Virus record (IMG/VR): IMGVR_UViG_2698536435_000009 | From: a virus | Taxonomy: Duplodnaviria; Heunggongvirae; Uroviricota; Caudoviricetes | DNA length: 7,446 nt | Reading direction: 5' to 3' (one strand) | Shown here: positions 2,374 to 7,446 of the stretch, in pieces | Layout of the letters: each line of letters opens with the position of its first letter | Numbering within the stretch: position 1 is the stretch's first letter | Notes under the pieces: generated by a model | Database searches by the model: none | What the model was told of the DNA's origin: nothing | What the model saw: the letters and a program-made list of their open reading frames with translations, nothing else | Program-made: the position numbers and the translations under genes

Positions 2374-3653
2374 ATCAGGGAACTGGTTATTCTCATTTTT
2401 TATTTGTGACATTGTGGTTGTTGTGCGACAGACATTGCTATTCGGCCCATATCCCAGATAAAACCCGCCAGCTCACGTGCAACAGCAACAATTGTAATAT
2501 TGACATTCTTTCCTTTGGCCTGAAGTTTTCGATACCTCTTACAAAGCCTGAGTTGAGCATCCCATGCTCTGTCAATGACGGGGCGGGGTAAATTTTCCTG
2601 CCTTTTTTGTATTGCCGGACTGATGCGTGCCGGATGACGGTAACTCCACGCTGCCTCGACCAATAGCTTTCTGGCATAGCTGTTTCCGGCTTTGGTAATG
2701 CTGCCCTGATGTCTGCTTCCACCCGATGAATATTCTGATGGCGTGATACCAAACCATGACATCAGTTGTCGTGGATGTTCAAAACGGGTCAGATCACCCA
2801 GTTCAGAAATTAATCCAACCGCAGTAATAAACTGAATCCCTCGCATGGCTTGCAGCGCCTCTACTACCGGATACAGCCTCCATTCGGTAACGGCCTCCTT
2901 CAGGGCGGATTCCAGCCGTTCACATTGTGCCTGCCGATCTTCTATTGTACGACGGTGTTCGTCAAAAGCTAATTGTCGCCAGGGACTTTCGAATGAGTAT
3001 TTGCTGAGCCAGCGTCGGTGTGCAGGGCCCCAATCTGCTCGCCCGACATAATGGACCCCATGAACCAGAAGAAACGATTTCAGACGTTGCCTTGCATGCC
3101 GTAAATCATCGCGGGCAGATGCCCATGCCCGGGCCAAATCCCGGAATGCCTCATCTTCAATGCCGGGTACGTAGACAGCAGAAAGATCTCCTGCACGCAG
3201 TGAACGCACAAGTCTGATGGCATCACGGCGATCGGTTTTAACCCGCTCCCCCGGTTTTTTCGGGATAAGTGAGGGGGCGCAGACCATGCAGTCAAAACCG
3301 GATTTCACCAGCCGACGATAAAGTCCATAACCACAGGGCCCCGCTTCATAAACGATACTGACCTGCGATGACTTTGACCTGAGACGTTTACAAAGATTCT
3401 GAATATCAGTAGGTGATGTGCCAATTTTACCCATCAGTTCAACAGGTTCTGAATTGATAGCATAAGCGACAGTAATCGATTCTTTGTGAACATCTAACCC
3501 GACGTACAATGTGTTATTGTTGTTCATGCTGGCCTCCGTGGTGGAAATACCGGGGTGTAGCAACAGCTCACCCATGCGGCTCTGACAACGATGTTAACCC
3601 GCGTTAAATATCCCACGTTGGCCAGCATCTGTCTCACGGAAAGTCATACTGCC
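2374..3653 (-). mobile_element. IS110-family insertion sequence (about 1.28 kb, boundaries approximate) with no obvious terminal inverted repeats
   Basis: Bounded on the left by the break in methyltransferase homology at 2373/2374 and on the right by the tfa-like copy B (stop at 3654, homology to copy A resuming at 3676). It contains a single DEDD-type transposase ORF. The right boundary is uncertain within 3528-3675. Confidence 0.65.
2400..3527 (-). CDS. IS110-family (DEDD) transposase, about 375 aa
   Basis: ORF track 2400..3575. The preferred start is ATG 3525-3527 (MNNNNTLYVGLDVHK) with GGAGG 7 nt upstream. It has the N-terminal YVGLDVHK motif typical of IS110-family transposases and the C-terminal ITAVGLISELGDLTRFEHPRQLMSWFGITPSEYSSGGSRHQGSITKAGNSYARKLL region. 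Confidence 0.85.
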   Translation of the reverse strand: MNNNNTLYVGLDVHKESITVAYAINSEPVELMGKIGTSPTDIQNLCKRLRSKSSQVSIVYEAGPCGYGLYRRLVKSGFDCMVCAPSLIPKKPGERVKTDRRDAIRLVRSLRAGDLSAVYVPGIEDEAFRDLARAWASARDDLRHARQRLKSFLLVHGVHYVGRADWGPAHRRWLSKYSFESPWRQLAFDEHRRTIEDRQAQCERLESALKEAVTEWRLYPVVEALQAMRGIQFITAVGLISELGDLTRFEHPRQLMSWFGITPSEYSSGGSRHQGSITKAGNSYARKLLVEAAWSYRHPARISPAIQKRQENLPRPVIDRAWDAQLRLCKRYRKLQAKGKNVNITIVAVARELAGFIWDMGRIAMSVAQQPQCHK

Positions 3654-3923
3654 TTACATTGTGTCTGGTTCTTCCGGCCACTCAATATCAGGTGCAGTTG
3701 ATGTATCAACACGGTTCAGCAACACCCGATACTTCTTCCAGGCTTCCAGCAACGAGTTTTCTTCCTCCGTTGCGATCTCCAGATCTACAGCATCCTGAAG
3801 TGGCGCAATATGCTCACTGAATTCCTGGATGTAGAACTGTGTGGTGACGGTCTTCCAGCCATTCGGCTCCTGCTGTATCGAAGCATACCAGGCTATTTCA
3901 ATATCGCTATGCTGCGGCAGCAT
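3654..3923 (-). CDS. Short tail fibre assembly (Tfa)-like protein, 89 aa, intact copy B
   Basis: ORF track 3654..3923. The C-terminal 50 aa ([50 protein letters not shown]) align with the C-terminus of the full-length Tfa at 6583..7110 ([45 protein letters not shown]). The N-terminal 40 aa are unrelated. Confidence 0.55.
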
Positions 3924-3950
3924 TTAACCCCTTGTAATTCATCGCCATAA

Positions 3951-3979
3951 TTGATTTAATTCACAAATAAAACTATAAC
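3951..3979 (+). promoter_or_regulatory. Possible promoter for the methyltransferase gene (TTGATT, 17-nt spacer, TATAAC)
   Basis: Hexamers at 3951-3956 and 3974-3979 in the 56-bp divergent intergenic region. The -10 element abuts ATG 3980, so the real start may be the second ATG at 3992 on a very short leader. Weak, pattern only. Confidence 0.2.
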
Positions 3980-4648
3980 ATGGTGAAATCAATGAAAACA
4001 AACACAGATGATGGGGCTAAAATTTACACACCACTTACCCTAAAGCTTTATGACTGGTGGGTTTTGGGAGTATCAAATCGGCTTGCATGGGGATGTCCTA
4101 CAAAGGAACACCTTCTTCCACACTTTCTGGAACATTTAGGTAACAACCATCTGGATATTGGTGTTGGAACTGGGTTTTACCTTACTCACGTACCTGAGAG
4201 TAGTCTGATATCTTTAATGGATTTGAACGAAGCTAGCCTGAACGCGGCATCTACAAGGGCTGGGGAATCAAAAATTAAACATAAAATTAGCCATGATGTT
4301 TTTGAACCTTATCCCGCGGCGTTACATGGTCAATTTGATTCCATTTCCATGTTTTACCTTCTTCACTGCCTGCCTGGAAATATATCTACAAAAAGCTGTG
4401 TAATACGCAATGCGGCGCAGGCCTTAACTGACGATGGAACTCTATACGGAGCCACAATTCTTGGCGATGGAGTTGTGCACAATAGCTTCGGTCAAAAACT
4501 GATGCGCATTTACAATCAGAAAGGCATCTTTTCAAACACAAAAGATTCCGAAGAAGGCTTAACACATATACTCTCAGAGCATTTCGAGAATGTTAAAACC
4601 AGGGTTCAAGGTACTGTAGTAATGTTTTCCGCTTCAGGGAAAAAATAG
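3980..4648 (+). CDS. Class I SAM-dependent methyltransferase (Rossmann fold), 222 aa, intact copy B
   Basis: ORF track 3980..4648. Motif I LDIGVGTGFYL (hh-D-h-G-x-G-x-G), with an acidic residue after beta-2 (LMDLNEA). No DNA-methyltransferase catalytic motifs (DPPY/NPPY or PC) were seen. An alternative start is ATG 3992. Stop is TAG. Confidence 0.8.
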   Translation: MVKSMKTNTDDGAKIYTPLTLKLYDWWVLGVSNRLAWGCPTKEHLLPHFLEHLGNNHLDIGVGTGFYLTHVPESSLISLMDLNEASLNAASTRAGESKIKHKISHDVFEPYPAALHGQFDSISMFYLLHCLPGNISTKSCVIRNAAQALTDDGTLYGATILGDGVVHNSFGQKLMRIYNQKGIFSNTKDSEEGLTHILSEHFENVKTRVQGTVVMFSASGKK

Positions 4649-4655
4649 CATCCAA

Positions 4656-4688
4656 CCGCAGCACGTTCTTGCTTAAGACGTGCTGCGG
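4656..4688. repeat. Perfect 11-bp inverted repeat (CCGCAGCACGT, 11-nt loop, ACGTGCTGCGG) between the convergent methyltransferase and tfa fragment C
   Basis: Read directly from the sequence. It is GC-rich but has no adjacent U-tract on either strand, so it is not a canonical intrinsic terminator. Confidence 0.5.
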
Positions 4689-4702
4689 CATAATCCCAAT
4701 GA

Positions 4703-4797
4703 TTACTCCCTGACAGGGTTCGTAGGCCACTCAATATCAGGTGCAGTTGATGTATCAACACGGTTCAGCAACACCCGATACTTTTTCTAGGCTTCCA
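4703..4797 (-). pseudogene. Tfa-like C-terminal fragment, copy C, with an amber codon at the conserved Trp position
   Basis: Homologous to 3654-3745 of copy B. It reads EA then TAG then [27 protein letters not shown]. The TAG is plus-strand CTAGG at 4787-4791 where copy B has CCAGG. Homology to tfa ends at 4797. Confidence 0.55.
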
Positions 4798-4798
4798 C

Positions 4799-5029
4799 CA
4801 CCAGCACGACAAGATGCCGCATACAGTGACCCAGTCAGTCCAGTTTTCAGACAACCAGTGCGTCACCTTTTTGAAGGCGCTTTAAAGCACGTTTTAATCC
4901 AGGTCGGCCTGTCCTTGTTCCGCTTAATTTATCTTCAAATATTTGTTCATATCCTGCACAAACAAGAGCGTTTCGTTGCAGGTCTGTATTCTGGTCATTT
5001 GTTGATACCCTTACATAGCCAATCAGCAC
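4799..5029 (-). pseudogene. pin: Pin/Gin/Cin-family serine DNA invertase, N-terminal remnant (about 77 codons) with in-frame stops, fused to tfa fragment C
   Basis: From GTG 5027-5029 (GGAG 8 nt upstream) it reads MLIGYVRVSTNDQNTDLQRNALVCAGYEQIFEDKLSGTRTGRPGLKRALKRLQKGDALVV, matching the Gin/Pin N-terminus including the catalytic Ser in VRVSTNDQ. It then reads TGA-KLD-TGA-LGHCMRHLVVLVVEA against Gin WKLDRLGRSMKHLISLVGEL (Gin sequence from memory). The resolvase C-terminus and the helix-turn-helix are absent. Confidence 0.8.
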
Positions 5030-5083
5030 GCTGAATCTCCCGTCCAAAAGCACAAATCATGCCATGCAGGCCAGAAACCGCCA

Positions 5084-5109
5084 TTATCTAAAACCTCGGT
5101 TTACGAGAA
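5084..5109. other. gix/pix-type 26-bp recombination crossover site for a Gin/Pin-family invertase
   Basis: TTATCTAAAACCTCGGTTTACGAGAA, with the imperfect dyad AAACC-TC-GGTTT, closely resembles the Mu gix and e14 pix sites as I remember them. It lies between the invertase start and the tail-fibre variable segment, and the tail-fibre reading frame opens inside it at 5092. Confidence 0.7.
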
Positions 5110-5868
5110 CTCGGCACAAGCGGGGAGAAAATACCGTTACTCAGTACAGCGAATACCTGGACTAATCGACAAACATTCAGCGGTGGCCTTTCTGGTGAAC
5201 TATCCGGCAATGCTTCTACAGCTGCAAAATTAAAAACTGCCAGGAAAATAAGCAATGTGGCTTTTGATGGTTCCTCCGATATCACATTAAAAGCAAGTCA
5301 TGTTGGTGCGTTTGCCTTAGGGAAAACAGGAAGCACCGTTGCGAATGATAAAGCAGTTGGATGGAACTGGAGTAGCGGAGCCTATAACGCAACTATTAGT
5401 GGTGCATCAACGTTAATTATTCATTTTTATATGGGAGAAGGAAGTTGTCCTGCAGCTCAGTTTCGGATTAATTATAAAAATGGCGGTATTTTTTATCGTT
5501 CAGCCCGTGATGGTTATGGTTTTGAAGCCGACTGGTCCGAATTTTACACCACCAGAAAACCTTCAGCAGGAGATGTTGGTGCACTGCCGTTATCTGGTGG
5601 TCAACTGAATGGTGCACTGGGTATCGGAACATCCAGTGCTCTTGGCGGTAATTCGATTGTATTGGGTGATAATGACACGGGCTTTAAACAAAAAGGCGAT
5701 GGTAATCTGGATGTTTATGCTAATAACGTCCATGTTATGCGCTTTGTCTCCGGAAGCATTCAAAGTAATAAAACCATAAATATTACGGGACGTGTTAATC
5801 CCTCGGATTACGGTAACTTTGATTCCCGCTATGTGAGAGATGTCAGACTTGGCACACGAGTTGTTTAG
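5092..5868 (+). CDS. Tail fibre protein variable C-terminal segment (Sv, silent orientation), with no own start, ending at an in-frame TAG; the frame continues 5872..6018
   Basis: The open frame begins within the crossover site (NLGLRELGTSGEKIPLLSTANTW...) and covers ORF track 5257..5868 (GTG-initiated). It is Gly/Ser-rich and fibre-like. After TAG 5866-5868 the same frame encodes 48 more aa ending [17 protein letters not shown], homologous to the C-terminus of the minus-strand copy ([17 protein letters not shown]). Confidence 0.6.
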   Translation, partial: NLGLRELGTSGEKIPLLSTANTWTNRQTFSGGLSGELSGNASTAAKLKTARKISNVAFDGSSDITLKASHVGAFALGKTGSTVANDKAVGWNWSSGAYNATISGASTLIIHFYMGEGSCPAAQFRINYKNGGIFYRSARDGYGFEADWSEFYTTRKPSAGDVGALPLSGGQLNGALGIGTSSALGGNSIVLGDNDTGFKQKGDGNLDVYANNVHVMRFVSGSIQSNKTINITGRVNPSDYGNFDSRYVRDVRLGTRVV

Positions 5869-6020
5869 ACCATGAAGAAAGGCGTGATGTATGAAAAATC
5901 AGGCCATGTAATCACGGGGCTTGGTATTATCGGTGAAGTCGATGGTGATGATCCGGCAGTATTCAGACCAATACAAAAGTTAATTAACGGAACATGGTAT
6001 AACGTATCGCAGGTATAATC

Positions 6021-6554
6021 ATGCAGCATTTAAAAAACATTGTCGCAGGTAATCCAAAAACCGTTGAACAATACCAGCTAACAAAGAATTTTGATGTTAT
6101 CTGGTTATGGTCCGAAGATGGAAAAAATTGGCATGAGGAATTAAAAAACTTTCAGGAGGATACAATAAAACTGGCTTACACAGTTGAGGGAATAATTATT
6201 GCTATAGACAAGGATGTATCAGCAATTAATCCAGAAGGTTTAAGTGTCGTTGAGTTGCCTGATATTACAGCAAATCGCCGGGCTGATATTTCGGGCAACT
6301 GGATGTTCAAAGATGGTGCGGTGATAAAGCGAACTTATACCGAGGAAGAGCAAAGGCAACAAGCGGAAAATGAAAAGCAGAGCCTGCTGCAGCTCGTCAG
6401 GGATAAAACCCAGCTGTGGGACTCTCAGCTACAGCTGGGCATCATTTCCGATGAGAATAAACAAAAATTAACCGAGTGGATGCTCTATGCGCAGAAGGTT
6501 GAATCCACAGACACCTCCAGCCTGCCAGTAACGTTTCCCGAACAACCAGAATGA
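6021..6554 (+). CDS. Tail fibre assembly protein (Tfa), 177 aa
   Basis: ORF track 6021..6554. ATG follows 2 nt after the TAA of the upstream tail-fibre frame. It is paralogous to the minus-strand Tfa ([22 protein letters not shown] versus [21 protein letters not shown]) and ends with the conserved PEQPE-type terminus. Confidence 0.85.
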
Positions 6555-6557
6555 GAG

Positions 6558-6587
6558 AAGGCCCGCTATCGGGCCTTAATTTTTATT
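6558..6587. terminator. Bidirectional intrinsic terminator between the convergent tfa genes
   Basis: Perfect 8-bp stem AAGGCCCG, CTAT loop, CGGGCCTT (6558-6577), followed by AATTTTTATT on the plus strand, with a T-rich stretch on the other side for the minus strand. Confidence 0.55.
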
Positions 6588-7110
6588 CAGGCTTTTGTGG
6601 CCATTCAGGATTTGCCGTATCCACACGGCTGACCAGAACACTGTAGCGTTCCCATGCTTCCAGTCGTGTGCGTTCCTCGTCTGTTGCCATATTCAGCCTG
6701 ACAGCTCGTTCCAGCGGCTGGATGACTGATTCAGCTTCGGAAAGCAATGCGGCCTTTTGTGATTCGGCCTGTTGTTGCAGTTCCTGTTCTGTATATTCCC
6801 TCTTTACTACTTTACCATCCAGAAACATCCATTTTCCGTTATTGTCTGCGTGACGATTTGCCGTAATATCAGGAACTTCAACTATGCTTAGCCCTTCAGG
6901 ATTAATAGTTGAAACGTCTTTACTGACAGCAACGATGATGTTGTTCTCATCGTAAGCAATTTTTATGGTGTCTGGCTGAAAATTCTTTTGTTCCTCATAC
7001 CAGTTTTTGCCATCTTCGCAAAAGAGCCATACCACGCCCGCTTTTTTAGTTAGCTGGTATTGTTCCGGTGTTTTCGGATTCCCGGCCTTAATATTTTTCA
7101 GGTGCATCAT
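6583..7110 (-). CDS. Tail fibre assembly protein (Tfa), inverted paralogue, about 175 aa
   Basis: ORF track 6583..7146. The preferred start is ATG 7108-7110 ([11 protein letters not shown]) with GGGGAG 8 nt upstream, sitting 1 nt after the TAA of the tail-fibre gene. The C-terminus is [13 protein letters not shown]. Confidence 0.85.
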
Positions 7111-7111
7111 C

Positions 7112-7446
7112 TTAAACACTCCCCACGTTGTACCATATTCCCCCAATCAATTTCTGAATTGGCCTTCTGGCAACAGTGTCGACAATATCATCCGCATTGC
7201 TGTTAATTGCGGCTGTTAAAACATAACCTGACGCATCGCCAAAGCCGTAGTCGCGCCATACGTTTTTATATTCAATGCTGCCAAGACGAATATCCCGAAC
7301 GACATGATTATGCAGCCATGTGCTTAACCAGTTGTTTTCCCACACTGAACCATAAATATCGCCACTAGACGCAACTTGCGCACCACTTCCCAGCGCAAAT
7401 TGAGGTAGCCTGAGTTTAACGGACACTCCTTCCTGAAATAGAATGG
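7112..7446 (-). CDS. Tail fibre protein variable C-terminal segment (expressed orientation), partial, continuing beyond the right edge of the window
   Basis: ORF track 7112..7426 is only GTG-delimited, and the frame stays open to position 7446. The C-terminus ...[63 protein letters not shown] is homologous to the plus-strand silent copy but is not interrupted. Confidence 0.75.

Follow-up and report, generated by a model that had tools for sequence, protein, structure and literature searches.

Opposed fibre/tfa cassettes with an adjoining invertase characterise the Mu G, P1 C and e14 P invertible segments, which belong to the Din family (Gin/Cin/Pin/Hin). In such a segment, each of two opposed cassettes encodes a variable fibre C-terminus and has its own tfa gene, a 26-bp crossover site sits at the junction between the constant and variable parts of the fibre, and the serine-invertase gene lies directly outside the segment, with a Fis-dependent recombinational enhancer in its 5' part. 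For the P2-like phages P88 and pro147, swapping the 31-aa hypervariable block HR2 near the fibre C-terminus alters host range (PMC5285337). Tfa chaperones are described, in the passage of PMC9608196 that cites the Mu S–TfaMu structure (5YVQ), as using a variable N-terminal domain to bind the fibre and as driving its trimerisation.

The stretch of DNA analysed here, 7,446 nucleotides in length and referred to as the window, is Shigella sonnei sequence. By exact look-up, the 203-aa ORF at 5257–5868 is identical to Q3Z104_SHISS of S. sonnei Ss046, and the 48-aa ORF, both tfa products and the transposase of the IS110-family element ISSso6 are S. sonnei proteins as well. The locus represents the end of a lambdoid prophage, between trpA/ompW and the tail genes J and lom. 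In terms of architecture, it resembles the Din family in having two opposed sets of fibre C-terminus and tfa (5092–6554 on the plus strand; 6583–7400 on the minus strand), a 26-bp site at the constant/variable junction, an invertase gene directly outside the segment and a tip homologous to that of Mu S. Unlike the members of that family, the remnant in the window is non-functional, with an invertase of 60–68 aa, one crossover site, IS600 in place of the constant part of the fibre, and a nonsense codon in the plus-strand cassette. The element descends from a Din-family invertible tail-fibre segment with a Mu S/P2 H-type tip and is now a remnant of one.

Table 1. Features of the invertible-segment remnant, in positions of the window.
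Feature	Position	Strand	Evidence or remark
Pin/Gin-type serine invertase remnant, first 60–68 codons	4847–5053	-	Pfam Resolvase N-terminal domain
26-bp crossover site TTATCTAAAACCTCGGTTTACGAGAA	5084–5109	+	invertase-proximal segment border; overlaps LGLRE junction codons
Plus-strand cassette body, variable C-terminal tail-fibre part	5092–5865	+	translation; Pfam gp37_C; promoterless
Amber codon TAG, from CAG (Gln) by a C-to-T transition	5866–5868	+	CAG in loci L001 and L002; TAG in 6 of 6 S. sonnei loci
Orphaned fibre end, 49 codons and TAA: hypervariable receptor-binding tip, conserved C-terminal end	5869–6018	+	
tfa, intact tail-fibre assembly chaperone, cognate to plus-strand tip	6021–6554	+	Pfam Caudo_TAP, E = 4.8e-34
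GC-rich hairpin, likely bidirectional terminator	6558–6577	.	between convergent tfa genes; flanked by T and A runs
Second tfa, cognate to minus-strand tip, 175 aa from ATG 7110	6583–7110	-	Pfam Caudo_TAP, E = 9.8e-37
C-terminal stump of about 96 codons, copy in expression orientation	7112–7400	-	cut by IS600
End of an IS600 copy (TGAGGTAGCCTGAGTTTAACGG...)	7401–7446	+	continues, as in L004, into IS3-family transposase

The plus-strand frame that starts at 5092 reads ...SRYVRDVRLGTRVV, and its next codon, in the same frame, is the TAG. Downstream of this stop, the frame continues for 49 more codons to a TAA at 6016–6018, 2 nt after which the ATG of tfa opens a 177-aa ORF. From an ATG at 5872, 3 nt past the TAG, a 48-aa ORF is called. 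The first-pass annotation had proposed that an amber codon splits the plus-strand tail-fibre copy, and translation of the frame reproduces both its coordinates and its peptide exactly. It had further proposed that the 49 residues beyond the stop align residue for residue with the C-terminus of the minus-strand copy, ORF 7112–7426. The match itself is real (BLASTP, 19/41 identical, E = 3e-09), but the alignment is not strictly residue for residue, as a multiple alignment with the stop masked places a one-residue gap between the two tips immediately before the stop position. The stop position opens the block that separates the SRYVRDVRLG motif from the conserved C-terminal end, and it is in this block that the three tip types of the multiple alignment differ most.

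The state of the codon in relatives was assessed at the DNA level by megablast of positions 5060–7446 against 5426 complete E. coli genomes. In six genomes (several NCTC86 assemblies, B-2207 and OZ040035), 86% of the query is matched, with an identity of about 94%. In the DNA alignment, the codon is CAG (Gln) in the closest of these relatives, NCTC86 and OZ040035; the homologue in OZ040035 is the end of one uninterrupted 2805-nt tail-fibre gene that stops 2 nt before tfa, and NCTC86 differs from the window at 17 of 1477 positions over 5084–6560 (98.9% identical). A 59-nt query with the TAG at its centre matched the same six genomes and no others, always with at least 1 mismatch, so that none of the 5426 complete E. 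coli genomes has the TAG. An exact-pattern scan of genome and metagenome contig collections for GGCACACGAGTTGTTYAGACCATGAA gave no match, a result that is silent on the frequencies of TAG and CAG there.

Protein-level comparisons give the same picture at greater distance. Among proteins clustering with the 48-aa ORF, five long fibres with unrelated bodies (P0017; P0020, 1401 aa; P0023; P0028; P0029) have Gln at the stop position, all within the motif TRVVQTM. A tblastn search with an 80-aa query across the stop returned 109 phage records, of which 107 cover at least 80% of the query; gpH from P2-like phages, Yersinia phage L-413C among them, matches best (95% identity). L-413C gpH and the tail fibre of pro147, translated from the fetched records, carry an unbroken TRVVQTMQKG in a single H/tail-fibre CDS that ends directly before gpG/tfa. 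Residues 424–502 of Mu S (PDB 5yvq, 504 aa) align across the stop position within one chain (E = 5e-16), and two further tip types, those of the ST131 silent copy and of the minus-strand copy of the window, are uninterrupted too. The homologue alignment that had been proposed earlier thus finds a sense codon elsewhere: CAG or Gln occupies the position in every relative examined outside S. sonnei, and none of them terminates the fibre at 5868. These comparisons bear out the claim of a nonsense mutation, and the TAG arose from CAG by a single C-to-T transition.

The plus-strand cassette resembles P2-like gpH/gpG (L-413C, pro147) in that the reconstructed cassette is 92–95% identical to gpH over its last 80 residues, with tfa/gpG directly after, and the pro147 tip is 92.5% identical to that of the window. 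It differs from these phages in that their genes are uninterrupted, with Gln at the position of the TAG, and in that the window copy lies in a lambdoid prophage remnant. Homology to the Mu S/P2 H tip is therefore present (5yvq, E = 5e-16; L-413C gpH, 95%), but the polypeptide is broken by the TAG, and the plus-strand tip would count as a member of this group as a pseudogene only. If the cassette were expressed, a product ending at 5865 would be without the receptor-recognising tip and most likely non-functional; the predicted loss of receptor binding draws on the data for Mu S and the P2-like phages, including the HR2 host-range block, with HR2 of P88 placed on the window tip by position only. 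Considered on its own, the stretch 5713–6554 holds a lambdoid-prophage tip whose protein sequence shares 92–95% identity with gpH of P2-like myophages, the plague-diagnostic phage L-413C among them, and shows a fibre tip common to different phage families.

Within S. sonnei, the TAG is present in 6/6 independent assemblies fetched (L004–L009, including CP023645 and strain 53G, which is L007). The exact 203-aa and 48-aa products each occur on at least 1000 contigs, and the index of the assembly collection lists the 48-aa ORF in 2201 blocks. Over 3676–7400, the window shows one or two differing positions relative to the six S. sonnei genomes outside a mismatch patch at 3714–3889. As far as these assemblies show, the TAG is a lineage mutation fixed in S. 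sonnei. Comparison with the E. coli relatives reveals other S. sonnei-specific changes in the cassette, namely a 3-nt deletion at 5546 (YTTTRK to YTTRK, with one Thr lost) and an N-to-K substitution at 5694, in KQNGDG. The derived changes number only six in all, about three of them probably synonymous, so that the case for relaxed selection rests on context and not on a substitution-rate test; the neighbouring tfa, which is still intact, speaks against it. Since S. sonnei is a young clone, fixation likewise says little on selection in either direction.

The context in question is that of a disabled switch. Functional serine invertases are about 185–190 aa long and consist of a catalytic domain and a C-terminal HTH; the 60–68 codons that remain here, from a gene whose 5' 180 nt is still present, match positions 2–69 of the 145 in the Resolvase profile (E = 4.6e-15), corresponding to half the catalytic domain and no DNA-binding domain. 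E. coli annotations give homologous stumps as a 183-nt "recombinase family protein" or a partial pseudogene. The crossover site, which closely resembles Mu gix, is the single match to its sequence in the window when as many as 3 mismatches are allowed (chance expectation 0), and no second crossover site was found in the window at that tolerance, so that 5084–5109 stands alone where two inverted 26-bp sites would flank an active segment. In strain 53G, the partner site TTATCGAATACCTCGGTTTACAGGAA lies in inverted orientation inside the full-length fibre gene, at the EYLGLQE junction; it is missing from the window, where it would fall beyond the IS600 junction at 7401. A sequence scan upstream of the plus-strand cassette found no sigma-70-like promoter. 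Both chaperone genes match Caudo_TAP (PF02413), scoring 117.8 and 126.5 bits where the gathering cutoff is 22.1; the first differs from its NCTC86 counterpart by 4 nt, and gene calls in S. sonnei genomes give the second a length of 175 aa.

At the far end of the segment, homology of the minus-strand copy to the 918-aa fibre gene of 53G stops at 7400. The sequence beyond is an IS3-family element, as in four other S. sonnei genomes, and E. coli annotation names this stretch "IS3-like element IS600 family transposase" (99.8% identity). IS600 thus lies where the constant N-terminal part of the fibre and its promoter would be, outside the segment, and the junction at 7401 varies between S. sonnei strains, as a deletion or insertion polymorphism; the full 918-aa fibre gene, lom and J are retained in S. 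sonnei 53G and L009. The minus-strand copy, which had served as the intact reference for the lesion, is uninterrupted at its C-terminus but is itself a stump. The earlier scenario in which inversion of the segment would yield an alternative fibre without its tip cannot occur in this strain, as it retains neither the partner site nor the constant N-terminal part; with a stump invertase, a single site and the IS600 cut, both inversion and expression are impossible here. In 53G and L009, the J tail-tip gene is present as two ORFs of 513 and 547 aa (14816–17994 in L007), which suggests another frameshift or stop in J of the same prophage.

The remnant at trpA/ompW in E. coli (NCTC86, OZ040035 and ST131) has the same truncated invertase as the window, the same methyltransferase and tfa-fragment neighbours, and a cassette body in common with it at 98.6–98.9% identity. 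Positions 3676–5852, through the invertase stump, are contiguous with ST131, NCTC86 and OZ040035 at 98.6% identity, and as the same truncation junction is found in E. coli, truncation of the invertase predates the split of these lineages. The window differs from its relatives at the tip, which NCTC86 and OZ040035 bear intact, with CAG, on the expressed copy, and which is replaced in ST131 by a different tip after window position 5852. The notion that NCTC86 and S. sonnei are inversion isomers of one segment was rejected because the other cassette differs, NCTC86 having the same body with an ST131-type tip and S. sonnei a different body and tip. Taken together, the junctions and alignments point to an order of decay in which the switch was locked first, point lesions came later and IS damage came last; truncation by IS600 and insertion of ISSso6 both occurred at the level of strains.

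Several other accounts of the stop have to be weighed against these observations. A one-base difference from the nearest E. coli relatives is the sort of change that a sequencing or assembly error in one record would introduce into a gene that is really intact; with the TAG recovered from six independent assemblies and each truncated product on at least 1000 contigs, such an error has practically no chance of being the explanation. The first-pass annotation had also raised the opposite reading, in which fibres normally end at 5868 and 5872–6018 forms a small conserved gene of its own. A 48-aa "phage tail protein" is indeed annotated in S. sonnei by gene callers and some depositors, and the ATG only 3 nt past the stop would suit such a gene. 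Among the homologues, though, no such arrangement appears: all of those examined outside S. sonnei read through with Gln, 107 phage records span the position, L-413C gpH and the pro147 fibre are single CDSs, and in Mu S the stretch is inside one chain, all of which makes a separate gene exceedingly improbable.

The change of CAG to TAG is exactly the one that a glutamine amber suppressor reverses, and the codons downstream of the TAG, like tfa, are intact; the amber could then be tolerated through read-through or suppression, for example by a Gln-inserting supE-type tRNA, with the cassette still usable. Yet downstream intactness is expected of a recent mutation in a young clone, and the stop is conserved in no relative, CAG or Gln standing in all non-sonnei homologues examined, so that it is no programmed read-through site. 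The cassette is, moreover, without promoter, invertase, partner site and N-terminal half here, and a usable cassette is accordingly very unlikely. Fixation of the TAG across S. sonnei might instead reflect positive selection for the knockout, for example against a fibre or tailocin-like particle or against a self-binding tip, and Shigella lineages are known for convergent gene loss. Against this stands the timing: the cassette was silent and locked before the TAG arose, the invertase truncation being common to E. coli ST131 and NCTC86, and a cassette already in this state exposes no phenotype to selection. As drift or hitch-hiking explains fixation in a clonal species, we see only a slim chance that the knockout was selected.

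We favour the reading in which 5866–6018 is the tail end of a pseudogene in a decaying S. sonnei prophage and the TAG a neutral nonsense lesion, with a probability of roughly 0.93. On this account, 5092–6018 would be the promoterless alternative C-terminal half of a Mu S/P2 H-type fibre in a Gin/Pin-type invertible segment, in which a C-to-T change would have turned CAG into TAG where the hypervariable tip begins, with 49 codons left to the natural stop. The TAG would have arisen and become fixed in the S. sonnei lineage after the invertase was already a stump in an ancestor common with several E. coli lineages. The cassette, having no promoter and no invertase and here also no partner site and no N-terminal part, would have been without selection; because IS600 removed the partner site and the N-terminal fibre part, there is nothing for the cassette to join. 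In an unselected cassette, the stop would be without functional consequence or a mechanism of its own and would represent neutral decay. The earlier suggestion of relaxed selection on a locked switch is upheld by the homologues, the invertase stump and the lone site, but it was drawn too narrowly, as the whole prophage end decays and not the switch alone.

Other parts of the window show rearrangements of their own. ISSso6 (2374–3675; IS110 family, transposase 2400–3575 on the minus strand), inserted in a gene near the cassette, lies between two copies of a 756-bp stretch, at 1618–2373 and 3676–4431, and a SAM-dependent methyltransferase gene is present twice, truncated at 1922–2461 and whole at 3980–4648. 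In six other S. sonnei genomes, the duplicated stretch is found as one copy, with no ISSso6 at this point; the doubling of the 756-bp stretch could have arisen by IS-mediated tandem duplication or could reflect an assembly problem. The patch at 3714–3889 comprises 14 clustered mismatches in the second copy relative to the first copy and to the other S. sonnei genomes. It sits in a tfa-fragment repeat family (1576–1693, 3634–3751 and 4683–4800) and looks like a gene-conversion patch that may derive from a paralogous fragment. At the left of the window, a Rha-family regulator gene (612–1184) and an Ash-family gene (355–630) of the prophage remnant are present; in related genomes, the Rha and Ash genes adjoin ompW/trpA. 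Several short tfa and DUF4376 fragments separate the two genes from the methyltransferase.

The plus-strand cassette is also mosaic. A breakpoint lies at about 5852, just past the codons for SRYVRDVRLG: before it, the sequence matches the ST131 and NCTC86 silent copy at 98.6% identity, and after it, another tip and tfa type follow. The position of the break suggests that tip-plus-chaperone modules are exchanged by recombination at the SRYVRDVRLG motif. The mosaic break is only 14 nt upstream of the TAG, the tip and tfa share 92–95% identity with their counterparts in viable phages, and silent cassettes could conceivably be a store from which superinfecting P2-like or Mu-like phages draw by recombination, with the fixed amber as an accidental or selected trap; if so, an amber at the exchange point would poison any phage acquiring this tip from S. 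sonnei. We consider this idea a long shot.

The TAG in the cassette is a case of ordinary gene decay, already known in kind, and not a new mechanism. IS-driven pseudogenisation in Shigella is described in the abstract of PMC8072062, and the locus is typical of Shigella pseudogene and IS accumulation in combining a nonsense codon, IS600, ISSso6, a truncated recombinase and a split J in one prophage. In this respect, the TAG matters little, adding one lesion to a cryptic prophage of a lineage already known for pseudogenes and IS elements. For annotation, many S. sonnei records list the 203-aa and 48-aa ORFs as separate "phage tail proteins", and these should become a single pseudogene. The C-to-T change, present in every S. 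sonnei genome examined and in 0/5426 complete E. coli genomes, could mark the S. sonnei lineage, and the locus illustrates an order of decay from the invertase lesion common with E. coli, through a point lesion, to strain-specific IS600 and ISSso6.
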